A stretch of DNA of 54,904 nucleotides, from positions 1 through 54,904 of the forward strand of contig CAJNYD010000030.1 of assembly GCA_905331295.1 (NCBI GenBank), read 5' to 3'. The translations under genes were made by a program, and so were the position numbers. Below, in pieces: positions 821 to 54,136 of the stretch (position 1 is the stretch's first letter; every line of letters begins with the position of its first letter). Origin of the DNA: Rotaria socialis. Taxonomy: Eukaryota. The notes beneath the pieces were generated by a model that saw nothing but the letters and a program-made list of their open reading frames with translations, searched no databases and was not told the DNA's origin.

Positions 821-2011
821 AAACATGTTTGAAGTAGATGAAGTCGCGCTTTTCCCCCCTTGTATTCACCACATTGTGATTGGCAAGCCTTCAAACCGAG
901 TTTCTATACTCAATCTTTCCCACTAAATAACAAAAGTAAACTTTTGAAATTCTAGGAATGAAATTCAAAAAACGAGGCCCTAATTTCTCAAATATAAGCG
1001 AATTTGTTGCTCAAAAATTGCACTTTCTAATTCGTCTTTTTTTCTTGGAAAAACATGCCAAAAAGTTTAAGGACTATTTTCTTGAACAGTTTTGCTAGCT
1101 CTATCCAAGAATATGTTAATTTGAAAGAACAATTTTGCTCAAATTTTGAATTTCCGACACCTTCCATGTAAAATGATTTTTGTTTTTGATGCAAGAGTGA
1201 ATTGTATTAAACAAAACGATACAATTCGATAGGAAAATAACGATTCTAATATTATAGCTTATATATACATATATCTTTCGTATATATTATTCAAAATGGA
1301 AAGGATTTTATTTCTTGTTTCATTTGAAATCAAAAACACAATCGAGTTGAAAATTGCTCGTTTGATATTTATCGGTGATCCATTTTTCATGCGTTCGTTT
1401 TTCTTATGAAGAGAAAAGAAAAGAACGATTGTGCTTAGTATTTGTTAGACGTGTCTCTATAGAAATCATTAATTAATATTTCTTCTTTATTTGATCCGAG
1501 AAACAACAAGCGGTTTATAAGAAAAATAAACGTAAGAAGAAAATTTGCTTTTATTATCATCGCAATTTTCTTGTTCTATTATTTTCTATAATGTTGAAAG
1601 AGGTTTGATAAAAATTTGTGAATAGTATTCAATAAAAAAATATATTTGAATAAATATTTGCACAGATAACCAAAATATCTAAAGGATAAAACATATATAT
1701 ATGTGTGCGGGTGTGCGTGCGTGTTTGATAGTCATTAACGAGAAAAGAAAAACGATTTGTTAAAATTGATTTTTACGTGTGAAAAAAAGTAAGGAGGAAA
1801 AATACGAATTGCTCGATTCATCTATAAGAACGATAAGAAAAATTTACGCAGCTGATTGCAAAGGTAAAATATTGATTGAAGTATTCGTACAGATAATAAT
1901 ATATTACTTTTTCTTTCTCTTTCGATTAACAGATATGCTTGATCAAGTTTGACTCTTTTTCTCGTGAAAAATAAATACAATACAGTTAGCAACAAATTTT
2001 AAGCTGAAATC

Positions 2012-5000
2012 ATGGTATAGTAAAGCGAACTTTTTTCTATTTACGAATTTTTTCTTTTTGGTATTCTATGTAGTTTCGTGAAAAACTAAAAACACGAAAA
2101 CATTTAGAAGCACTTAAACATGAAATCGATTTGGTTTGTTTCAATAGCTACTTATCATTTTTGTTTTCTTATTGAAATTTATTTGTTAGGATGAACATAA
2201 AGTTTCAATCAATGAAGTTTATCGAAGATATGGAACAAGTCCAGCTATGGTATTCGAGTGATTTTTTCGTTTTATTTTAATTGCTGTTTTTGTTTTCAAG
2301 GGTCTGTCGGACGAACGAGCAGCCGTACTCCTTGAGCGGGATGGTCCAAATGATTTAACACCGATGCGAAAAATACCTGAAATTGTTCGTCTAGCTAAAA
2401 ATATGTTTGGTGGATTTGCAATACTTCTATGGATTGGTGCTTTCCTTTGTTTTACTGCTCATTTTCTTGAATTCTATACATTAGATGATCTACAATATGA
2501 TAATGTTTGTAAATGTTTCTTTGATTTTTTTATCAATACAAAAAAATAGTTTTTAGATGTATTTAGGGATAGCATTAGCTAGTGTTATAATCATCACTGG
2601 ATTTTTTTCTTATTATCAGCAAGCAAAAAGTTCAAAAATAATGGAATCATTTAAATACTTGGTGCCACAGGCAGGTATTATTGTTATTAGATTGATTAGA
2701 ATAAATTTTTATTAAATCGATTTTAGCAAGCTTGCGTTGTTAGACATGGAAGATCAAGAAATATAAATCCAGAAAAGATTGTTATTGGAGGTTAGTTTTA
2801 TTCTATAGAAGATAAGAAGAAAAAAAAAGACCTTTTATATTTACTAACTTATTCGCATACAATCAATTGAATTTTGTTTTTTCGTAAAAATTTAGATATA
2901 CTTGAAATTCGTCGAGGTGATCGGATTCCAGCTGATATTCGAATAATTCGTGCTCATGGTCTTAAAGTAGATAACTCATCACTGACAGGTGAATCAGAAC
3001 CTCAAGCTCGAGGAATTGAATATACCAATGATGATCCATTAGAAACAAGAAATTTAGCTTTTTTTGGTACATTTGCAGTTGAAGGTCTTTTATTTTTAAT
3101 TCTTTTTTAGTTATTTTTATTTTTATTACAAAATTAATTTAATTTAGGTTCATGCATTGGAGTTGTGATTCGTACTGGTGATAAAACGTTTATTGGACGT
3201 ATTGCTAATTTAACAGCTGGTCTGTTATGAATTTGTTTTATTTTTTGTATGAAGCTATCAAAAACAAAATCGAAATTTTCTAGGCATTGAACGTGGTAAT
3301 ACACCAATAGCCATTGAAATAAATCATTTTATTCGCATAATCACAATTATTGCTATTGTTGTTGGTCTCCTTTTCTGTATTTGTTCTCTTTTTCTTGGTT
3401 ATACATATATTGAAGCTGTTGTTTTTCTCATCAGTATTATTGTTGCACAAGTACCTGAAGGTTAGTTCTGTTTTTTTTTTATAGATTTAGTTAATTTTTT
3501 AAATGAATAACAAGATTTCTCGTTTAGGTCTTTTGGCGACTGTGACTGTGAGTCAATTTGGCTTGAAAGAAAAAAACAATTGTTCATAGTTATTAATTTA
3601 AAGGTTTGTTTAACGTTGACAGCTCAACGAATGGCAAGAAAAAATTGTTTGGTGAAAAATTTGGAAGCAATTGAAACGCTCGGTTCAACAACAGTTATTT
3701 GTGCTGATAAAACAGGAACATTAACACAAAATCAAATGACTGTTGCTCACTTTTGGTTTGATAATCATATTATTGCTTCTGATATTGATGCTTTTCAATC
3801 ACGTATAAAAAAATTTATTAATTTATTTTTTTGAAAAAATATCAAGAACTTTTCTTTTAATTCAATAGAATCAAATTATCTAAAATTTTCTCATTGCTGG
3901 AATGCATTGGGGCGATGTGCCATGTTATGTAATACTGCTATATTCAAAGATGATTCACTTAATCTTTCAAAACCAATTGTTCATCGACAATGTGAAGGAG
4001 ATGCAAGTGAAATAGCAATTCTTAAATGTATGGAAGCTATTGTATGTCATTTATCTATTTAATTAGCTTTAAATTAATAAAATTGAATAAAAATTTAGAC
4101 TGGTAATGTTGCATTATTTCGTTCGAAAAATCCCAAAATATGTGAAGTCCAATTTGCATCATCAAATCGTTATCAATTATCGATTCATTCAACAGGTGAT
4201 CATGATGAAAGATATTTACTTGTTATGAAAGGAGCACCAGAAAAAATTCTCAAAAACTGCTCAACAATATATGTTGATGGTTGTGAAATTGAATTTAATA
4301 CTTATTGGAAAAAACAATATGAAAAAGCATTTAACGAATTAAGTAAAATAAATAAATTAAAATTACCTGAAAAATAAAATTTTGAAATAAAATAGGTAAT
4401 CTTGGTGAACGCGTTCTTGCCTTTGCTGATTATCGTTTACCATTAAATAAATATCCACGTGATTACCAATTTGATTGTGACACAATTAATTTCCATGTTA
4501 ATCCTTATTATGAAAATTTTAATTTTCCAACAACTGGTCTTCGCTTTTTAGGTTTAATTTCATTGATTGATCCGCCACGTGTTAATGTTGCAGAAGCTGT
4601 TAGAAAATGTCGTTCAGCTGGTATACGTTTATTAATGGTAACAGGAGATCATCCATTAACAGCTGCTGCTATTGCACGTGCAACAGGTATTATAACTGAT
4701 CATAATTCAACGGATGTACTTTTAAAAAATGCTTATGATAATAATGCTCGATCATGTGTTATTCATGGAAATACATTAAAAACAATGAATAAACAACAAT
4801 TAGATAATCTTATTAAATATCATCAAGAAATTGTTTTTGCTCGAACAAGTCCACAACAAAAATTAATTATTGTTGAAACTTGTCAAAGATTGGGTGAAAT
4901 TGTTGCTGTTACTGGTGATGGTGTTAACGATGCACCAGCATTGAAAAAAGCTGATATTGGCATTGCCATGGGTATTACTGGATCGGATGTTAGCAAACAA

Positions 5001-7010
5001 GCATCTGATATTATTTTACTTGATGATAATTTTGCATCGATTATAACTGGCATTGAAGAAGGAAGACTTATTTTTGATAATTTAAAAAAATCAATTTGTT
5101 ATACATTATCATCGAAAATTCCTGAATTAGCTCCTTTCCTTTTTTATATGATTTTTCAAATTCCTTTACCACTTGGTATGATTTTTTTTTAGCTACTATA
5201 TTAAGTTAAAACATTTTGAAATGACATATTTTCATCAATTTTCATTCATGATAAATGACTCGAAGAATATTGAACGAAATTTTAGGAGTAACTGAAACGG
5301 TTGCTTAGTATGATAATATACATATTTAATGAATTCTTATTAAGATATACTTATTGATGAAAGATTTTTAGGTTAATTTTACAGGGAAAATTTATCTAAA
5401 CAAAGTAATATTTCATTGAGTCTTCAACAATGTTAATCACCTATTAGACTAAGCATACCATTATTTTAGTTCGTTAAAAATAAATCATTTATTTGTTTGA
5501 AAAATATTTTTAGTGTTAGAACCATAAAAATTCATTTTTAGAGGATTTGAGTCTTCACAGATCTTTTATAGATTTATGGATCTTTTTATAGGTACAATTG
5601 CTATATTATGTATTGATTTGGGCACAGATATGTTACCAGCAATATCATTAGCATACGAAAGAGCTGAATCAGATATAATGAAACGACCACCAAGAGATGC
5701 GAAACGAGAGCATCTTGCTACTGATCGGTTTGATTTATTTTTATTATTCTCTTTTTTTCTTCTATTAATTTTCTATAAAAATAGACTTATTTCGATGAGT
5801 TATGGTCAATTAGGGATGATTCAAGCTGGCGGAGGGTTTTTCGTTTATACTGTTGTTATGGCTGAAAATGGGTTTTTACCATCGAGATTATTCGGATTAA
5901 GAAAATCTTGGGATTCAAGATCAATCAATGATCTTGAAGATTCGTATGGACAAGAATGGGTTTGTTTTTCATGAAATTAATTTTTCTCTTTAGACATATA
6001 CTTACGTATATTCATGGAAACAAATTTTTCTATGGTTTAGACTTATTATCAACGAAAAGCATTGGAGGATACTTGTCATACGGCTTTCTTTGTAACTGTT
6101 GTCATTGTTCAATGGACTGTTTTATTATGTTGTAAATCTCGACGAAATTCTCTTTTTCGACAAGGAATGGCGTAAGTCATTTTATCTGTTCAACATATAT
6201 TTTGTTTTTAAAGTCATTCTACAATGATCATTGTTGAGAAACGAAGAAGATATATTATGGAAACGATTAAAAAAATCAAAATTTTTAATAATATCGTTTC
6301 AATAGAATAGTTCTTAGAAATTAATATGAAAATTTTCTAAATTACTTGTATTGATTAAGGTCATATATTAATCTATAGGATATGTTTACATCGACTTTGA
6401 TACTAACGCTAAAAAATCAAAATAAATAATAAATTCTTTAGATCTATATTCGAGATTGAGCTCGTTACTTTAAAAGCATTCTTTTGATGTTTATTGGGAG
6501 ATTTAGTAAAAAGAAACAAATTTCCAGGAGAAAGTGATTAAACACATTCTGAAATAAATTCTTTCTGTAAACATAGAAGAAAATTTTTATCGAATTAACT
6601 GTTCGATAAGACTAAACAAATTTAATAGAAATAACTGAAACAAAAATACACACCCTAAATCTGTAAGGAGAATAGTGTTTATTAGTATAAGTTTTTTCTT
6701 TGATTATTTTAATAGTTATTTTTTTTATTCTTAAAGAAACCAGGTTCTTAATATGAGTATTGTTTTCGAAACTGTGCTTGCTATTTTAATATCTTACACA
6801 CCATATATCAATCGTGGTTTAATGATGTATCCATTGAAGTAAGTTTCGAATTATAAAATAGTTATCTTGATTGACTGATTGATTTCTAGGTTACATTGGT
6901 GGTTTTTACCATTGCCATTCACTTTACTAGTTTTAATTTATGATGAATGGCGAAAATGGATGATTAGAAAATTTCCTGGGTCAATTATTGATCAAGAAAC
7001 TTCGTATTGA
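2012..7010 (+). CDS. ATP1A: Na+/K+-ATPase alpha subunit (P-type IIC), ~20 exons, divergent paralog
   Basis: ATG at 2012 is directly followed by a 59-bp intron. Spliced exons give [38 protein letters not shown], the phosphorylation motif [60 protein letters not shown] and C-terminal DQETSY-TGA (7008-7010). No stops or frameshifts were seen in the exons. Confidence 0.96.
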
Positions 7011-25232: not shown

Positions 25233-26741
25233 TTATCGATTTGAATTCATACCATTTATGATATTCTTAAAAACATCTAAGAATTCCTTTTCTGTTTTCA
25301 TGCTTTCCTCTTGAAGCTTGGTTTGCTTTTCAAGCAATTCGATTACCTTCACTTCTGATCTGGATGCAACCTCGTTTGCATCATTGATTTTTCCGAGCAG
25401 TTCTTGCATAAGATCAAGTCTGTTAATAGATAATAATAGAGAGAAGATCATTCTAAAACATGTTTAAACTTGTTTTACTTGATTTCCGAAGCACGTTTTT
25501 TTCTAACTGCATTTATCCTCTTCGTCGTATTAGGTGTCCCTTTAGCTTCAGACTTGATTGTAGATTTATCATGGGAAGGCGAAGATGATTTGTTTAAACG
25601 ATTAGGATCAGAACCAGGCGCTTCTTCATCTTTCAGCATGTCAATATCTTCATTGACTTGTTCCGATATTTGCGTTGCATTTAAGTCGCATGATTGAGTA
25701 TTTTCAATATCTATCAGCTCTGTCTGTTCAGTAACCATAGAATCTGATAGGAGAGTATCGTCATTGTAGGGTCTTTCTCCTAAAGCAAATTGTACATTTT
25801 ATATTATGAAATGCTCATACATAAATTTCTAGAATTCAAACTCACCAAGTATCTTATCTATCGCGTCAAAGTAAGACCATGATGAAGGACTGCCACCTGT
25901 CTTTCCTTGCTCTTTTTTTTTCTTTCTATACTCAATAGTAAGATTGGAAATTTTGCATTTAACATCAGCACCACTTAATTGTCGATCTTTTAATATCGAA
26001 TTGAGTTCCTTGGCCATCTGGTTATATATGGGAGTATTTCTTTGCCCACCCTTATTTAATTGTAATTGAAAATCACTCCAGATTCTGATAAATGAGAGCG
26101 TTTCACCCTCGCTCCAGTTTCTCGACCGTTTTGCTGCTTTGGGTGCTAGAGAAAGAACTTATAAAATACTTGATTTAACGTGTTTTACTTGTTTCAAGAT
26201 GTTTTATCTTTTTGTCTGTTTCTTTGTTGCGCGTGTTGTCGATTCAAGATATACCAATTCGTTTTTCGTATTTTTGTTTGCTGCTGTTGATTTTGATTTT
26301 GTCATAGTCGTAACAGGGCTCATCACTAAAATAGTCAAGCTTTCAGTTGTTTTTATAAAAGAACTGTTTTAGACAAATCTGCTTACGCGTTTCTGCTGAT
26401 AATGGGGACTCAGCAGTCGTTGATCGTGCGATTGGCATATCGACGACAGATGATGAATTTGGAACTTGTTCGAGAATTGTTATTCCAGCTGTTGATTTAT
26501 TTATCGTTTGTGGTGTTATCGGACTAGAAAGAGTAAATGTTTTTGGAGATGAATTTATAATAAGACGAGTTGGTAAAGTAGCAGTAGCTGGAGGATTAAT
26601 TCCATTTAGAATTTGTAACGAAGAAACGACATTGTTTTGGTGTAGGACTTTATGCACTGAGTTCAATTTCAAGTAATGTGAATTTTGTGGTTGAACATTG
26701 TTGTTGGGTGACATGACAAAGCGAACATATTGTGGTTTCAT
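25233..26741 (-). pseudogene. Harbinger accessory Myb/SANT-like (trihelix) DNA-binding protein, spliced
   Basis: RNWSEGETLSFIRIW...IYNQMAKEL...VKCKISNLTIEYRK...TGGSPSSWSYFDAIDKILG plus a C-terminal coiled coil. Short GT-AG introns; apparent in-frame TAA at 26204-26206. Confidence 0.85.
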
Positions 26742-27066: not shown

Positions 27067-30000
27067 GGCCCTCCCCCCACCCTAATTTCTATTTTAGCCT
27101 CTGATCATCTGATCGTCCTGAAATTTTCAGAGTAAGTGTATCTACTGTTAGGTACTTCACCATAAAAATTTCAGCTCAAAATATTGACTCTAGCAAAATT
27201 TGCCTCAGAATTACCTGTCAAAATACAGAGTTCAGCGTTTCCCAAACCCTACTGTTATCTTAAATGGTAGAAAGCGCGGGTTGGTTTTAAAGTATGCCAA
27301 AAACCCAGCACTACAACTTAACGTAGTCAGAATTTTTCTTTTCTTTTTCTTTTCTTTTCTTTTTCTTATTTATTTCATAGGGTATGGAAATGAGGGGGGT
27401 ACACTGTAATACAGTTGAATTTCATGAGATACTGAACATGAAATTTAACATTGTGGCTTCGTTAAGTTGTAGAACGAATCATTCTCTTCATTTTGAAACC
27501 AACTTGAGCTCTCTAGTGTTTAAAATGACTAAACGATTTGGGAAATACAAAAGTGAAACAACAAAAAAGTCAATTGTGAGAAAAACGTAAAACAAGTTTA
27601 GGAAGTGAAATTGAAGACTTTTTGCTACTGTAACATGGGATAAAATTAATTTTTCAGTGATTTCCCATCGATCACTAGTTAGAACTAACTGAATAGATGC
27701 ATTATAGAGGTTAATAAAATATTCTGGGTGCTGTATATAGTAATGCAGTGTACACAGTCGAATGATTAATAAATGATGCGAAACAAACCATCTGAATTAA
27801 CATCGATATTTTCTATTATTTAACAATAATATGTCTTAAGTATCTGAAATAGATGAAGATGTATTGAAGTAGTCTCAGATATGAAAAAATCTTGACTAAT
27901 TGTTGTGACTAGTTTTTAAAAAATCTTAGATAAATAAGAAATAAGTCACTACTAAACTAATAATCTCCCCCAGGTTCATAATCACTATTCGATTCGTCAT
28001 CTGTTAGTTGCAAGTCCATTAAATCTTGAGTAAGATTAACAGAATTTGTATTAGGATGAATAAATGGTATTTCATCATCATCACTTCCACTGGATGAGCT
28101 ATTAGCACTAGCAGCAGTTGTTATTGTTACAGGTGTTGTTTTACTTTTTTGGCGTCTCTTTTTTACTTTCGAAGTAGCATATTTTCTCATCATACCAAGT
28201 CGACTGAAACATTCAACAGAATAATACCCTGCAGATGAGAAGACGTTTGTAAATAATTTGTCTAAAGAATCATAGCCATCATTATAAATTATTGTGGACA
28301 AACCCAATCCGATACGAAGAATTGTTGTTGAGCAAAATCGGTGCTTAGGAACCATTGTCCACAACAATGAATGAAAAGCCTCATTAGCATTTTGTGATCC
28401 ACCACCTATCACACGTGCTAAACTAGTTGGAGAACATAGTTCTTCAAATGCGGGCTTGATTAGATCTAAGCATGCCCTTGGAATGGCTAATTTTGAATTG
28501 TGCTGGTATTGTTCACCTTTTAAATCTGCTTGAAGGTACTTACACCATTGAGAGTCACACCAATCATGCATCGGTTCCCTGTCTGTGGAATAATGATGAT
28601 TGAAAATAGCCCATGATTTTTTATACAATTTATCTAAATCAGTTTTAGATTCACGTATTGCTTTAGCAAAATAAATTTTAAATTTGATAGCGTGAGCATC
28701 AGTCATACGTCCTTTACCACTAAATCTTTTACCATCAGATAAAGTTTTACCCTTGCTTTCTTGCTTGATCTTTTTGATACGACTTAACATTCGTTTTGCA
28801 AAATGATTTGTATCTTCAAGTTTTTTTATAGTAACACCCGAATATGGAGGATTATTTGTTAGAAAATTATGAACTTTAGCATCACCATCTCCAACATATG
28901 ATATATATTTTATTTTATATTTTGATAATGATCGACAAAACATTTCATGGATCATTAGTTTTTCCATTGCACCTGATGCTCCTGTATTAGAAAGACTTAT
29001 AATAAATAATAAATTAGTATATAATTCATAAAAGGTACCTGTAAAGTTTAATTGGCATTCATGATTTTCTTGAAATGTACTAAATAAATCAAAATTAGTA
29101 TGACGTAGACTTTCTGCGCCGAGACATTTCGAACAATTTTTAGAGGACCATGTAGTATCTATAACTTTTGGATTGGCTGTCGTTGAACATAAGGCAGCAA
29201 TTCCATGAAGACTTGAGTATCCTCGAGTCAGCCATGCACCATCACCACTTACTACTAAATCTCGTACACCACCAGCTGCAGCAACAGCTTCTTCAACAGC
29301 AGTAGCCATCGATTGTTCTTGAGCCTTTTCAATATAATCCAAAACAAATTCTTGTGCTTCACGGTACTTGTGTTCTTGAATAGGTGGCGGTAGATTTAAA
29401 GCACCTAATAATTTCATCACTCCATCACGACCTAATCCACATAGAGTACTACCAATTGCTAAACGAATATTAATCTCATGACGTCTACCAGTTGGCATCT
29501 TCGGCGATGAATACAAAGTCGTGCATGATTTACAATTATTACACATGAATTCAACCTGAACGTATAATCCATTGCGTTCTTTGATAGCTATAGAGCCCTC
29601 CCAAAGCATGTTGCAACCAGAACATGAGAATTGTTTTAGTAATGAGATTAAAGAATTCATATGTATAATTAAATTCGAATTCAAGTTAGATTCAAGATTT
29701 TGTCTACTTGATGTGGACTGATTTTGCACCGACAACATTGACTCATCGTTATCATTGAATGATGATGAAAGGTCTCTCTTTCTCTTTAGGTTTTCTGGAT
29801 GAATCCGTTTCATAAGTAACCTTTTACTCTTCTTTTTGTAATTCATACTCCTTTTACCCATTGAAACCTTTTTACGACTAACAATATATAAAACATTGTA
29901 TTACAAGAAATAGTGCTAACTTACTACTGAAAATACACTTGATGGCTGATTTAACTTAACAAATATATCAAAAGAATGAGAAATATGACATTTTATTTTA

Positions 30001-31900: not shown

Positions 31901-32559
31901 CATTGTCAATTTATATACAGCAATAACAATCAATTCTCTGGAATAATAGCCCGCTTCATCATTCATCTATTTGATAAAACTAACTATTCAGTGAAATGGA
32001 CTGTTCAGCTCATTACCCGGATACTGATCTATAGAAGTTACTAATGCAGTAATCTCATTTTATTACGGATATTAATTTCAATAATAAGGAACAGGTAACA
32101 TTTTTATTCAAGCAGCAATATTCGAGCCTATTAAACCATCAACATATTCGGAATTATTACTATCCCTCAACAAGAAATTTATAAAAACATATTCCGACTC
32201 CACACCCTACTGACAATGTTGTCAACACGTTTTCATCTATAAATGGTGCATACGTAATTTTTACACTCAAACACATTCCCCGGTTTATTGATCATCAAGT
32301 TTTGATGAAACTCAAAACAAATCATCGATAAATCAGCTCAAGAGATTTAAAATCGACTGTTGATGAAAATCCAATTATTGACCTACTAGTTGGTTATAAT
32401 CGATTCAAATCTATCAATCGGATTGTTTTCTCAATCGATTTAAGGATTATAATCGATTTCAATCTGATTATATGTGAAAAGAACGATTATTTGGGAAATA
32501 ATCGGATTTTCATATGTATAATCAAAAATAATCAAGATTTTGCAACCTATATTTTTCGC

Positions 32560-32581
32560 TGGGGGGGGGGGGGGTCGTTAN

Positions 32582-32657
<76 letters not shown>

Positions 32658-32666
32658 CCCCCCCCG
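32560..32666. other. Poly-G / N / poly-C tract at a contig join (likely sequencing or assembly artefact)
   Basis: G run, a single N, then a C run of about 75 nt. This produces the spurious poly-Pro and poly-Gly ORFs. Confidence 0.75.
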
Positions 32667-33128
32667 CGTCCGTAACTCATTTTACATGGAGATCGTAAGT
32701 ATATCATAATACTTATAGAGTGTGCTATCCTATGGAGCATGGAAATACTATATAATTAAAAATCTCCAAGTGGAAATATTATTGGTGAGACGATTAATTC
32801 ACGAAGGAAGAGCAAGGAAAAAAATCAGTCAGGATGATCGTAACGAACATCTCCTCAGGAAGATCGTAATAGAAATCAAGTGCGAAATGTCTCTTTCCCA
32901 TAAAAACTTGTTGTACAATAAATCAATGTTATAGATCCGATCTATTATTGTCAATGATTATTGATGAGTAATATATACGTATATATTGCATATATCATAA
33001 AAGTAAAGAAAAAGAAAACCTTGTCTATATGTAATAGTAAAAGAAGAGAAAAAACCTTCGCGGTTCGTCATCAACGTGGTGTCTCATGGTCATTTGTCGT
33101 TCGTCATAGTCGATAATATTAGAAAGCA

Positions 33129-34841
33129 ATGAGCTACTACGACGATTGTGGTGATGAATATTCATCTGATGATGATGATATCTTTTATCATAATTATAGT
33201 GTAGATTATGCCAATCAAATATTAAATGGACATCATGCTGTTTCATCATGTTTACCACGTATGCATCAAAAACAAAGAAGATATTCACCACGATTAGTGC
33301 GTATCTCAACATTGGATCAAATTCCTATCGTTAATCGATCAGAAATTCTTCCTTCATTACATAGCCGACCAAAATTGAATTATGACGAAGATATTTCATC
33401 AGTACCCATTGCTCCTTCTCGTTTACCATCATTAGAAGCTACCAGTGAAGAATTAGAAAGACGAGCAACACAAAGAACGCAAACGATACCTCAGGTTGAT
33501 ATTATATTGTTTTATTAAAAAGCATTTTTTCTTTCAATTATTTTAATTCAATTGAGTGCTTTTTTAGGAAACATCAGCAACTATTTCTCCAATTACCAAT
33601 AATACACCTACTGCTACTTACAATGATAATAACAATAATAATCCTCCATCTGAAAATGTGCACCGTCCATTAAATGAAGCTGAATTAAGACAAGTTCAAC
33701 AGCAACAAGAAGCTTTTCAACAACACTTACTCAATATGCAACGTCATTTACTTGAACAGTCTCAACAAGAACAAGTTCCAACATCAAATTCATCTGGACG
33801 AAGAACAAAAGTATCCTATCATGATCTTGAACTTGATGATGACCAAGCTCGCATTGCGGATTTAATTGAGCATGATCCTTATGTTGCAGCAGCTATGGAA
33901 GATTTTGCTTATACACATGGATTATTGGATTGCAACAGACAAAGGTAATTTGATTTCTTTTTTCTTTAATTAAATTGACTCATATGATTCATTGTTAGAA
34001 CTGATTCTAATCATTCATCATCGCAAAATTCTCAACATATATCTAAACGACATCGAAGTCAATATGATGATGACGATCGTTCTCATCGATCTTCTTCATC
34101 TTTATCATCATCTGTATCAGTATCGTCGCTAAACAATGTAACATCAAAGATAAAAGATTCTAACGTTGAAATTATTTTATTGCGTGAACTTAAAGAAATT
34201 AGACGTTTAATGGAAGAATTTGTTCATAGTACAAATAATGTGAATAATCTCAGAGGAATGAGTGTTCATTATCCAACTGTTGACCCAGTAACTGATTATC
34301 GACCATCCATGGTACCACGTAAACAGAATCCACCTCCAGAACCAAATCAAATTTTATATCAAAATGTTGTTGATACTATAAGAGAAGTTATGGATCGACG
34401 TTCTCCTTCTCAACGTGAACAACAATTAAAACCGAGTGAAATAAATGCAAAATACAAATATACTTCTAAAAGAAAACCACCAAATCCATTATCAACTCAT
34501 CAATCCACAGTTATGGAACGATCAATATTACCAACGCAAAATCAAAGACAACGAAACTCATTACAAATGACAACTCCACCAATTGTTCCATCGTCAGCAG
34601 CATCATCATCAAATGTTCCGGTAGATTAAAACATCTTTTGTAGACTATTTTTATTTAATTTCTTTTTGCCAAATTTTAGCCTGCTCCTCCATACGAAGCG
34701 TTAGTTAATTTTTCTTCATCTCGATCAACAACAATAAAAGATCGTAATTTATCTTATGGAAGTCGTCAAAGACAAGCAAATGTTTATGATAGACTTTTAC
34801 CAGGAAATTATTTACGCTTATATACCAATAAGTATAATTAG
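33129..34841 (+). CDS. Uncharacterised, largely disordered protein (4 exons, ~510 aa) with Q-rich and coiled-coil segments
   Basis: Exons ~33129-33494, 33568-33944, 33999-34620 and 34680-34841 join in frame at GT-AG introns of about 54-73 bp. The protein ends NVYDRLLPGNYLRLYTNKYN*. Confidence 0.85.
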
Positions 34842-37800: not shown

Positions 37801-38864
37801 TTTTTTTTATAGATTTTCATGTTAAAAACGAAACTGAAATTATTGTTTAAATACTAATTAGAAAAATCAATCGTAAATAAAATATATAAAAAGAAATCTA
37901 TTTTAATATATTAGATTTGACCTATTTATCAAGATTCTTAAATGAAAATTTAACTTGTTTTAAATTTTTATGTGTTTTTTTCGATTTAGTATTAAAATAT
38001 TTTATCTGTTTCGTAGGTTATTAAACAGAAAAATAGTTTTCTATTCTGTTTCAAATTTATTTATGGAAAACTGAATTGTCTTTTTGTTTTTCATAATAAT
38101 GCCTTTATTTATTGCTTTAGTTATATATCCATTGATTTCAATCAAAAATAAAAATAAAGGCTTAAAAATTTACTTATTTGAAGCATGCAGAAGTGGTAAA
38201 CGTTGATATGCTAATTCAATTAAAGAATTTTCAATATCTAAATTTTCATTACTTAAATGTTTATCTTTTTCAACAGCAGCATAATAAGTTTGACTTAATT
38301 TACAAGAATCATCAAATGATTTAATTATTTCAAATAAATCTTCATTTTTCTTTTCTAATAACAGTCCTTTAAGTGCATAAATTTCTGCAAGTAATAAAGA
38401 CGATCTATTCGGTTGATCATTAATATCATTTGGTATTGAATTTATTGCTAAATTAACATTTAATAAACATTCATCATAACGTGCTTGAGCATAATATAAT
38501 TTAGCTAAAAGACACTCAACTTCAAATAAACGTGATGATAAAACAGATTTAAGAAGATTTTCAACACGAATTAATTCTTCTCGTGATTTTTCTATATGAC
38601 GATTATCAGTTAATGGATATTGTTGTAAATAGTATTCTAATTGTGCTTCTCCGTCTAAGAATTTAACATATTCTATTTAAAAAATACAAAAATAACTATG
38701 CGTTTTTTAAAGGGAAAAAAAGAATATATATATATCCAACCTGAAGCTTTTGCAGTTTTTAATTTATCCAAAATTTTAGTCCAATTAAGTTCTAATCGAT
38801 ATTTTTCAATTTCACTATCGGTTCGATGTTTTCCACTAGACAGATTAGTTGATGTTGTTGCCAT
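34885..38864 (-). CDS. TTC7: Tetratricopeptide repeat protein 7 (PI4KA complex scaffold), multi-exon
   Basis: N-terminus DSEIEKYRLELNW..ILDGEAQLEYYLQQYPL matches the TTC7 start. Also LFIPRDVNEEILLLLL, TPR repeats (YMRGLINDARGQLKLAKQNYNDALAINP) and C-terminus LEGNSPIVSYHSIMRVL* (compare TTC7 ..SPVLPFSIIPREL). Confidence 0.9.
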
Positions 38865-52090: not shown

Positions 52091-53056
52091 TTAAACAATA
52101 TTAACAAATTCTATCAATGACATTTGTTGTTCGTTTTCTAGATTTTTCATATCGTCTCTATAAATTCTTCCCGATAAATTTTGATTATGAATTTGTTTTT
52201 GTTTTCTTTTTAATGATGAATTAATATCAATTAATAATTTTTCTTGTATATCATTAATAATATTTGATTTTTGATTAACAAGTGGAAAATTTTCAATTGC
52301 TGCTGAAGCAACAACAATCATATTAACGAAATCAGTTGATCGAAATGTAATTATATTATTTTGTCCAAAAACTGAATCTATTGTTAGACGAACATTTATA
52401 TAAGATTGATAAATACAAACAAGATTTACAATGAATAATCCACCGTTAGGATTTAAAAGATATTTTAGTTCAAGAAAAAATTCTTGTGTTTTCATATGAG
52501 AAGGTAAACCACTCATTGAATCATATGCATCGAGTAAAATAATATCATAATTAATTGAATTTAATAAACTTTTTAAAAATTTTCGTCCGTCATTAATAAT
52601 AACTTTCATGTTTGAATCTTCTTTAAAATAAAAATATTTTTTTGCCATTTCATCAACAAGAGGATCGATTTCAATAATTGTTATGGAACATGTTGGATAA
52701 AGTTTTCTGATAGCTCGTGGAAGTGTTCCTCCACCAAGTCCAATTACTAAAATATTTTTATTATCTAATAAAAATGGGTAATATGTTAATGAAATAATCA
52801 TCAATTGAATATATTCAACAAAAGGATAATCGACTCGATTTAAATCAAGTTGAGCTTGTGCACCATTTGACAAATTATTAAAACGCATTATTCGTTTTGT
52901 TCCACATTGAGATATTATTATTGAATAATTATATTTTGATCCTTGTTTAACAAGAATATTTTCACGATGAAATGAAAATAATAAACGAATTATTAAAGAA
53001 AAAACAACATGTAAAATACGCACAATTTTTATTGATAAATGAACTATGATATGCAT
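52091..53056 (-). CDS. Intronless spermidine-synthase-like class I SAM-dependent methyltransferase (~321 aa from the first ATG)
   Basis: ILVIGLGGGTLP (motif I), IIEIDPLV, INDGRKFL, YDIILLDAYD, TQEFF and LNPNGGLFIVN. The first in-frame ATG is at 53056; the ORF track starts at an upstream GTG. Confidence 0.88.
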   Translation of the reverse strand: MHIIVHLSIKIVRILHVVFSLIIRLLFSFHRENILVKQGSKYNYSIIISQCGTKRIMRFNNLSNGAQAQLDLNRVDYPFVEYIQLMIISLTYYPFLLDNKNILVIGLGGGTLPRAIRKLYPTCSITIIEIDPLVDEMAKKYFYFKEDSNMKVIINDGRKFLKSLLNSINYDIILLDAYDSMSGLPSHMKTQEFFLELKYLLNPNGGLFIVNLVCIYQSYINVRLTIDSVFGQNNIITFRSTDFVNMIVVASAAIENFPLVNQKSNIINDIQEKLLIDINSSLKRKQKQIHNQNLSGRIYRDDMKNLENEQQMSLIEFVNIV

Positions 53057-54136
53057 CAATGATTTTTTTCTGTTACTTTCATGATCGACAACGACACAAA
53101 ATGAATCAATATAATTTTCATATATACAAACAAAAATAAAAAATCTCTTTGATCCATAGAAAAAACAAGGTTCATCGTTGTTGAAATCTATCACATCATC
53201 CTGACTTCAGAATCAACCAATGACTGCATTAAAAACTTATATTTTAGAAAAATCTTGGATTTTGTTCTATATTTCGATGGATTCTTCTATTTTAAGTAAT
53301 AAATATTCAAATACAGTAAGACAACGCTAGCAAAATTTTTAAATATCTTTTTAAAGCTTGTCTTGTTCCTCTAACGAGTACATATATATGTGAATATATG
53401 AGTTAGAAAAATCAATCGAATTCTTTTGCCTGAACTTTAATCTGCAGGTCAGACCAGATCACCCAATTCAAGAAATATAACTAGTCTTTCTGTTGCTTTA
53501 CTTTAAAAATTAAAATTAAAAAAGAGTTCTTTCATGTCTTATAATATTACATTTTGTTTCAAACAAAAAACTTAAAAATATACAATGATGACAGAATTAG
53601 ATAAGTTCAACTTTTCAAATGTGCTATTTTTTGATCTAAACTGTTGAAAATGTGATTTTCAAAATTAATTTTTTTTAGATTAAAAGAAAACGAATTATCA
53701 AATATAAAAATTAAATAATTTAAAAGTAAAATATAATAAAATCGAATATAAAAATGATTTAACCATTATTAGTTTCATTTAGATAAATATAAAAATTTTC
53801 CGTTTAATTTTATCTTTTTCTTTTGACTCTGAATATGTTTTCTATTAATTAATGAATTCTTTTAGGAAAGTTTGTCATCGATTAACTTTTTAAATATCAA
53901 TATGATTATCTTTAGTAAGAAGATAATACCATATCACTTAGAGAATCAAATCAACATTGAATCAATTCAGTTTTTCAATATATCAAAAATCAAAAGAGCG
54001 AACGTGATTATAGTCAGAGAACGTATTTTTGAAGACCATTATCCATAACGAAGAAAATGGCATAGTAAACGGTTTTAGAATGATAAGAGATTATTTTACG
54101 TCATCATGCTTCTTGAGGCCACCCCCCCTCGCTCCC

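Follow-up and report, generated by a model that had tools for sequence, protein, structure and literature searches.

Rotaria socialis carries a gene for a P2C ATPase alpha subunit (Na,K/H,K family) in which a lysine in transmembrane segment 5 (TM5) is combined with loss of the aspartate of Na+ site III. The paralog is conserved in bdelloid rotifers; the effect of the lysine, K776, is known already and was published for Artemia alpha2KK (2Na:1K). With a lysine in the ion pocket and a Na+-binding acid lost, the paralog therefore quite probably moves fewer ions per ATP, and a tentative prediction, drawn by analogy with mutant pumps, is that one Na+ is expelled for each K+ imported, without net current. 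The literature search found no paper on this rotifer pump, and the only natural Na+ pump with measured non-canonical stoichiometry found there is alpha2KK, which keeps site III. If the prediction is true, the paralog would allow the loss of ion sites in such pumps to be studied in a natural case. The first-pass annotation had proposed an invertebrate pump with reduced stoichiometry, useful in dilute water or during desiccation, and this interpretation is partly supported.

Gene model and transcription

The window, i.e. the whole stretch of DNA analysed, spans positions 1-54,904 (54,904 nucleotides) of contig CAJNYD010000030.1, forward strand, in assembly GCA_905331295.1. The exon model is as follows.

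2012-7010, + strand: P2C ATPase alpha-subunit gene, 19 exons, 1007 aa, single terminal stop
2012-2014, 2074-2133, 2190-2249, 2301-2504, 2557-2670, + strand: exons 1-5
2727-2790, 2896-3084, 3148-3219, 3284-3460, 3528-3547, + strand: exons 6-10
3604-3802, 3869-4041, 4099-4342, 4396-5175, 5592-5727, + strand: exons 11-15
5785-5959, 6041-6171, 6737-6838, 6890-7010, + strand: exons 16-19
2671-2726, + strand: GC-AG intron; an RNA contig from one run skips 56 bases there
2970-2996, + strand: A-domain motif DNSSLTGES, intact
3706-3720, + strand: phosphorylation motif DKTGT, intact

Of the 18 introns, 17 are GT-AG; the remaining one is GC-AG. The encoded protein is 99.8-100% identical to R. socialis database proteins (one match covers 1006 of 1007 residues), has Pfam P-type domains and contains the motifs DKTGT, TGES, KGAPE, TGD and GDGVND as well as the SYGQ loop. 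In both sequence and model comparison its closest relatives are Na,K/H,K pumps, and in the trees it is placed within animal pumps. The fold predicted from an alignment (pLDDT 76.0) has Na,K-ATPase as its top structure matches, which supports family membership only and is uninformative on side chains; single-sequence prediction was uninformative (pLDDT 34.6).

The gene is transcribed. RNA contigs from four runs were compared over positions 1900-3800, where the long pieces reach 3379 at most, before the codons of Q324, K776 and V926. Spliced contigs spanning four intron joints occur in two of the four runs, and the GC-AG joint is backed by one of them. That the gene is expressed at all, on which the first-pass annotation had made its reading depend, is thus established. 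One of the other runs has short pieces, mostly less than 90% alike, and the other has no match. Contig depth is about 4 in both runs containing the gene, a figure that cannot rank genes. As regards expression under desiccation, the tag of the Adineta vaga ortholog had no row in one supplement file of PMC10809525, nor in the part covered of one of PMC12220480.

Residues of the ion-binding sites

Numbering is that of pig alpha1; chain 3WGU aligns N324, N776 and D926 to the changed residues. The positions are listed below, assigned by alignment of the sequence or the gene model.

2469-2471, + strand: E111 (Q111E), M1-M2 loop; model and alignment
3448-3450, + strand: Q324, codon CAA, TM4, IIVAQVPEG (canonical N); sequence and alignment
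3457-3459, + strand: E327, site II carboxylate, kept; sequence and alignment
5112-5126, + strand: TM5, S775-K776-I-P-E779 in YTLSSKIPE; N776K is AAA at 5115-5117; S775 and E779 kept
5615-5629, + strand: TM6, D804 to D808, both kept; model and alignment
6110-6133, + strand: TM8, Q923-W924-T925-V926 to C930; sequence and alignment
6768-6770, + strand: E954, TM9, kept; model and alignment
6996-7010, + strand: C-terminal ETSY and stop; Y1015S, Y1016 kept; sequence and alignment

The codons and the alignment agree with Q324, K776, V926 and ETSY as first read. In TM8, D926V (GTT at 6119-6121, in QWTV) is accompanied by A925T, and Q923, W924 and C930 are kept. The canonical acids E327, E779, D804 and D808 are all present; the canonical pair N324 and N776 is absent (Q, K), as are D926 and the YY tail (V926, SY). 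Also kept are D369, Y771, T772, S775, T797, Q854, R933, E954 and Y1016, and the earlier statement that the named ligands, the catalytic motifs and the open frame are retained holds in the alignment and the 19-exon model. Both terminal tyrosines had been brought into the argument; the first (Y1015) is changed to Ser, but the second is kept. Further changes are T774S, A770C, I780L and Q111E, the last at a position of the M1-M2 loop that we take to be part of the cardiac-glycoside site.

Conservation in bdelloids and recurrence in animals

The paralogs considered here are database proteins of R. socialis or sister species and do not derive from this assembly. The Q324 and K776 pair stands in proteins of eight bdelloid species, and therefore sequencing error or chance is excluded. 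V926 is present in 7/7 of these species whose models extend to TM8. Orthologs are found in nine bdelloid species with K776 invariant, and the syntenic ortholog of Didymodactylos has K324/K776/V926, so that the expected pairing of K776 with V926 recurs there too. Given this ortholog, Q324 probably evolved from an earlier Lys; K324 is also seen in Brachionus relatives. Judging from these proteins, the paralog is kept across the deepest known bdelloid split. A metagenome scan for ortholog DNA returned 80 loci, the best at 62% identity, and no ortholog. Bdelloids also hold canonical paralogs, as the first-pass annotation had anticipated, and paralogs with V926 only.

Artemia alpha2KK was left out of the trees, and no salmonid protein was retrieved. 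In a 42-row tree the Lys paralog, reached by long stem branches, nests among canonical rotifer paralogs (support 98/100), which argues against orthology to the branchiopod alpha2KK gene, itself absent from the trees. Topology tests reject the union of the bdelloid Lys clade with fish K776 pumps (p-AU 0.0004) and with the pump of the crayfish Procambarus clarkii (p-AU 1.8e-48). A common origin with either is ruled out, and the independent invertebrate origin suggested earlier stands as far as these pumps are concerned.

K776 itself is no rare event; it is recurrent across animals, with at least nine changes on the 42-row tree, and is seen in crayfish, mite, flukes, hairworm, land snail and monogonont rotifer. 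Crayfish, Brachionus, zebrafish and anabantoid-type fishes again combine K776 with a lost D926. Among the retrieved K776 proteins D926 is kept in 46, versus 26 without it, and on the 42-row tree the coupling of the two changes is not significant (four independent pairs, p 0.5), nor is co-evolution of K776 with a change at N324. V926 occurs in two bdelloid classes, which the best tree unites at 82/80; alternatives to a single origin are not rejected (p 0.06 and 0.26), and a test omitting Brachionus gave p 0.034 but is confounded.

Proposed transport cycle

In the proposed cycle, Lys776 would be a tethered cation that occupies one of the shared sites I and II, as it does in alpha2KK, so that one K+ would enter. 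Val926, aided by the Y1015S tail, would abolish the Na+-only site III, and one Na+ would then leave, not two. Residue 324, Lys in the older state and Gln in R. socialis, may reposition Lys776 and keep K+ affinity usable. The 1:1 prediction is a sum of published mutant effects and assumes that both changes are additive. Single-site P2C pumps exist, namely the H,K-ATPases, which work at 1:1. The effect of the lysine, cited in the first-pass annotation, is indeed published: according to Artigas et al., pumps with the alpha2KK mutations N333K/N785K move 2Na:1K, Lys758 of alpha2KK lies inside the ion cavity, and N785K alone lowers K+ affinity about 20-fold, which the TM4 Lys rescues (PMC10756188). 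With regard to site III, D926 neutralized by C930R gives electroneutral 2Na:2K transport, and the D923N mutation reduces the affinity for Na+ by a factor of more than 100 (PMC9463140, PMC10812997).

Several observations stand against 1:1. The D935N mutant (the D926 equivalent) keeps a K+-activated outward current at about one-third turnover (PMC3971657), and thus loss of the carboxylate need not empty site III, whose other ligands, Y771, T772, S775, Q923, W924 and E954, are all kept. Mutants with Na+ at site II only are phosphorylated yet inactive (PMC10812997), and Artigas et al. suggest that occlusion in alpha2KK begins with binding at site III (PMC10756188). Nor is 1:1 thermodynamically required, because estimates with assumed concentrations show that 2:1 already attains 0.005-0.07 mM internal Na+ and that 3:2 could draw K+ from sub-micromolar water.

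The paralog would serve to take up or retain ions in fresh water, in epithelial tissue such as that of protonephridia or gut, and would work beside canonical housekeeping pumps. In low salt, freshwater fish increase their K785 isoforms (PMC10756188). The desiccation role suggested earlier is unlikely, as R. socialis does not desiccate: the closest species is obligately aquatic and non-desiccating (PMC7943196). More tentatively still, the bdelloid paralogs might form a natural ladder, predicted as 3:2 (N/N/D), 2:2 (N/N/V) and 1:1 (Q or K/K/V).

Alternative readings

A close rival of 1:1, with an appreciable though minor share of the probability, is an alpha2KK-like electrogenic pump with two Na+ out and one K+ in. 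Val926 would here only weaken site III, giving insensitivity to external Na+, and would shut the proton leak through D926 at low external Na+. The D935N pump is electrogenic, blind to external Na+ and has proton import down to 12% (PMC3971657), and the leak operates when Na+ is at or below 5 mM, which fits fresh water (PMC9463140). The retained site III ligands agree with this, as do both alpha2KK lysines in the Didymodactylos ortholog. However, Asn offers a side-chain oxygen that Val lacks; if tail truncations are a guide (PMC2894553), the changed tail tyrosine should weaken Na+ occlusion as well; and alpha2KK itself retains the aspartate (PMC10756188).

It is unlikely that import still amounts to two K+ (at 3:2 or 2:2), with the changes retuning affinities or kinetics only. 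Without Lys324 the side chain of Lys776 may lie outside the sites, and Gln324 is a mild change. In the available part of PMC10756188 stoichiometry is measured for the double-Lys mutant only, but that same part locates Lys758 of alpha2KK in the cavity and gives a K+ Hill coefficient of 1.14, near 1, for the N785K single mutant.

Less probable again is an independently evolved H+,K+-type pump that exports H+ (or H+ and Na+) for K+ at 1:1, site III loss plus the tethered Lys being the cause of H+ export. H+ selectivity is predicted to need destruction of site III and a tethered site I Lys (PMC9463140), and both kinds of change occur here. The lysine is nevertheless at 776 and not 775, one residue beyond that of the H,K-ATPases, which was the ground on which the first-pass annotation set that type aside; position 775, K in ATP4A, is Ser. 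A Lys at 776 retains Na+ selectivity in alpha2KK mimics (PMC10756188). W924 and C930 are those of Na,K pumps, the H,K-type Ile924 and Arg930 are absent, there is no Y324, and over the whole length Na,K chains score 1343 versus 1124-1148 bits. H,K-ATPase orthology is rejected.

That the copy is decaying or does not pump (being a pseudogene, a scaffold or a sensor) might be read from the long stem branches and the contig depth of about 4, which cannot rank genes, yet it is very improbable, and a pseudogene is excluded, given the open 19-exon frame, the intact motifs, the spliced transcripts, invariant K776 in nine species, and identity between R. magnacalcarata and A. vaga equal to that of the V926-only sister paralog (85.6% vs 85.4%).

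Comparison with known pumps

The Lys, V926-only and canonical paralogs, with the K/K/V ortholog of Didymodactylos, are a ready-made series for three questions: whether the working cycle needs site III, whether site III loss with a tethered Lys yields H+ transport (raised in PMC9463140), and what role K776 isoforms have in freshwater animals. In the literature consulted, K776 is treated chiefly for fish and branchiopods, and the survey extends that pattern to further animals.

Canonical pig alpha1 (3WGU) shares the fold, the catalytic motifs, the four site I/II acids and the SYGQ loop, at about 59% identity. The paralog differs by N324Q, N776K, A925T, D926V and Y1015S, and its large cytoplasmic loop carries one insertion of 11 residues and one deletion of 8.

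Artemia alpha2KK (PDB 8K1L), of a type shared with Daphnia, likewise has Lys at the N776 position, a changed N324 and canonical paralogs alongside. The TM5-bearing exon has alpha2KK as its best PDB match (344 vs 337 bits); over the whole length alpha2KK scores 1279 bits, below vertebrate alpha1/alpha3 at 1343. At 324 alpha2KK has Lys, as does the Didymodactylos ortholog, and R. socialis Gln. The parallel drawn in the first-pass annotation holds for Lys776; alpha2KK, however, keeps every site III residue including the aspartate, and therefore the R. socialis pump, with V926, differs mechanistically. alpha2KK serves hypersaline salt export.

Freshwater teleost alpha1 isoforms (salmonid alpha1a, zebrafish atp1a1a.5, Anabas, tilapia) share Lys776, and the zebrafish a1a.5, Anabas, Betta and Mastacembelus proteins also are without D926, having Thr there. 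N324 and mostly also the TYY tail are retained, and these isoforms are nested in vertebrate alpha1. Salmonid alpha1a reportedly carries a Lys in TM5, a Val in TM8 (for Asp) and a Ser in TM9 as substitutions. Compared with this set, the R. socialis paralog has K776 and V926 and keeps E954. The sole retrieved non-bdelloid protein with K776 and V926 is XP_045626279.1 of P. clarkii, which also has A770C and T774S; it differs in keeping N324 and the YY tail, and groups with decapod pumps. We know of no functional study of it.

ATP12A, the H+,K+-ATPase of non-gastric type, resembles the paralog in joining a tethered TM5 Lys to a disabled site III (PMC9463140). The means differ: ATP12A has Lys at 775, Tyr324, and a site III that retains its aspartate and is disabled through Arg930 and Ile924 (PMC9463140), whereas the R. 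socialis paralog has S775, C930, W924 and V926. Its 1:1 electroneutral exchange (PMC9463140) is the behaviour predicted for the R. socialis paralog.

Gene model and conserved residues

The P2C ATPase alpha-subunit paralog encoded at 2012-7010 (plus strand, 19 exons) is a real, conserved variant of a known pump type. The exon model gives 1007 residues with a single terminal stop, and its introns are GT-AG in 17 of 18 cases and GC-AG in one. Alignment to pig alpha1 (3WGU) identifies the changed sites as N324, N776 and D926. Q324 (3448-3450), K776 (5115-5117), V926 (6119-6121; together "Q/K/V") and the ETSY tail (6996-7010) all lie where the first-pass annotation had placed them. The exon model and alignment also uphold its claim of an intact frame with site residues and catalytic motifs retained: E327, D369, Y771, T772, S775, E779, T797, D804, D808, Q854, Q923, R933, E954 and Y1016 are present, W924 and C930 are unchanged, and the motifs DKTGT, TGES, KGAPE, TGD, DPPR and GDGVND are intact. 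The top structural matches of a fold model (50-row alignment, pLDDT 76) are Na,K-ATPase.

In the part of the large cytoplasmic loop that exon 14 (4396-5175) encodes, 11 residues are inserted and 8 are deleted relative to pig alpha1; the Didymodactylos pump shares the insertion and lacks the deletion. Position 111 (2469-2471), which belongs to the glycoside-binding loop, carries E in this pump, against S in the canonical bdelloid protein P0088 and T in the V926-only protein P0082; the E may be associated with ouabain insensitivity. The window has 229 N, none inside the pump gene, with N runs and a long C run near 17111-17515 and 32332-32709.

The protein is identical to R. socialis P0163 at 1004/1004 aligned residues and to P0165 at 1006/1007, matches that assign the window to this bdelloid or a very near relative. 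Q324 and K776 occur together in proteins assigned to R. socialis, R. magnacalcarata, R. sordida, R. sp. Silwood1, R. sp. Silwood2, Adineta steineri, A. ricciae and A. vaga. The co-occurrence of K776 and V926 in orthologs, proposed as a check, is found across bdelloids: V926 and the ETSY tail are present in seven of these eight species, and the Silwood2 model stops short of TM8. Contigs from two of four runs, tentatively taken to be RNA and compared over 1900-3800, skip four model introns, with joints that coincide with splice sites; they differ from the window at 0/215 and 4/317 bases, and codons 324, 776 and 926 lie outside their cover.

Paralogs and origin

Three bdelloid classes are found: canonical N/N/D (P0088, P0187), N/N/V (P0082, P0096, P0023) and Q or K/K/V; the first, known from database proteins of the same or sister species, supplies the canonical paralog whose presence was to be checked. 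P0073 and P0021 also carry D926V only, and this class is predicted to be a 2:2 or leak-free pump. All three classes and one unnamed canonical protein form a single clade (98/100, 99/100 and 80/99 in three trees with trait columns removed).

Didymodactylos carnosus P0186 has K324, K776 and V926. Its orthology to the Q/K/V pump follows from its placement as sister group of the Q/K/V clade (support 96-100, three trees), from the loop insertion that both have, and from a further gene, joined to its end by annotation, that matches window 33820-34479. With this species the comparison reaches across the earliest bdelloid split known (PMC7943196). Asn to Lys and Lys to Gln each require one base change, and thus Q324 was probably derived via Lys. 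Brachionus calyciflorus P0133 (K324, K776, T926) has a long branch. It joins the Q/K/V plus P0186 clade in two trees (97/99, 98/99), is unresolved inside the rotifer clade under a mixture model, groups with a mite in one tree that carried a long-branch warning, and is basal in FastTree. It is possible that the Lys paralog is older than the bdelloid-monogonont split.

The independent origin suggested in the first-pass annotation stands with respect to crayfish P0094 and two fish K776 proteins, since trees constrained to unite these with the K clade are rejected (p-AU 1.8e-48 and 0.0004, respectively); the trees comprise 17-46 rows chosen from 456 proteins, with Artemia alpha2KK and salmonid alpha1a absent. 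Fish alpha1a isoforms themselves are not all orthologous (PMC4971688; PMC11172918; PMC13530225).

K776 occurs in 79 of 307 homologs, with D926 kept in 46, lost in 26 and TM8 absent in seven; these are counts and not frequencies, as the redundant set came from homolog searches, two-thirds of them aimed at K776, and cluster look-ups. Of those without D926, 18 are from bdelloids; at position 926 the others have V in crayfish, A in the mite Blomia (together with Q324), and T in Brachionus and in five fish proteins. Among the K776 proteins that keep D926 are those of flukes (with M324), of a hairworm, of a land snail (with W324) and of numerous freshwater fishes. This wide occurrence, together with at least nine changes of K776 on a 42-row tree, makes K776 a recurrent, already known solution. 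On that tree its association with D926 loss is not significant (four independent pairs). The complete Q/K/V/SY combination is confined to bdelloids among the proteins compared. In the Blomia tropicalis pump (P0122), site III is changed even further, with Q923K in addition to D926A. P0121, a K776 protein that bears the label Salpingoeca infusionum, falls among animal pumps in the 42-row tree and near the base in FastTree; the label may reflect contamination.

Genomic neighbourhood

Other features of the window
23629-24549 and 25829-26158, minus strand: DDE_Tnp_4 transposase ORF and Myb/SANT-like ORF (Pfam)
27957-29900, minus strand: 647-aa ORF, Mutator-like transposase (Pfam, E 8.6e-52)
33123-34629, plus strand: gene pieces matching no Pfam family
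38170-38676, minus strand: exon of a TTC7-like tetratricopeptide protein (domain match)
52091-53206, minus strand: 371-codon unbroken frame, spermidine-synthase-like methyltransferase domain (domain match)

The pair at 23629-26158 we take to be typical of a PIF/Harbinger element. The pump neighbourhood is conserved across bdelloids, since the 33123-34629 pieces have their homolog in the gene that annotation joins to the Didymodactylos pump; in this window they are separated from the pump gene by 27 kb and two transposons.

Stoichiometry and role

Lys at both 324 and 776 leads to 2Na:1K transport; Lys758 sits inside the cavity of alpha2KK, and on its own the TM5 Lys reduces the affinity for K+ roughly 20-fold (PMC10756188). 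C930R, which neutralizes D926, gives electroneutral 2Na:2K exchange, and D923N lowers Na+ affinity over 100-fold (PMC9463140; PMC10812997). Summing the effects of Lys776 and of D926 loss would yield 1Na:1K exchange, and on the strength of this addition 1Na:1K is our tentative best guess for the bdelloid pump. Counting against it is D935N, a mutant of the D926 equivalent, where electrogenic pumping persists at one-third rate and the proton leak is lost (PMC3971657). The same result favours a 2:1 pump in which Val mainly shuts the proton leak and lifts inhibition by external Na+, a possibility that we rank a close second. An unchanged number of K+ ions is unlikely, and H+/K+ exchange slightly more so. 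That the gene is a dead copy is very improbable: identity between R. magnacalcarata and A. vaga is 85.6%, against 85.4% for the sister paralog, and the pump is thus not decaying faster. The tail change is mild, as one tyrosine is kept and PMC2894553, so far as it bears on the tail, concerns loss of both.

Fewer ions per cycle allow steeper gradients. As an illustration with assumed concentrations, the internal Na+ floor is 0.3-1.7 mM at 3:2, 0.005-0.07 mM at 2:1 and below 0.00001 mM at 1:1; these figures do not demand 1:1. Because R. socialis and R. magnacalcarata, both obligately aquatic and non-desiccating (PMC7943196), retain the gene, freshwater ion balance would fit better than the desiccation role also put forward in the first-pass annotation, which is now disfavoured.

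The matches listed in a literature search, whose coverage lies largely outside subscription journals, included none on a rotifer sodium pump. The mechanistic prediction for the bdelloid pump appears sharp. In alpha2KK, site III is retained (PMC10756188), whereas in the bdelloid pump V926 replaces the site III aspartate.
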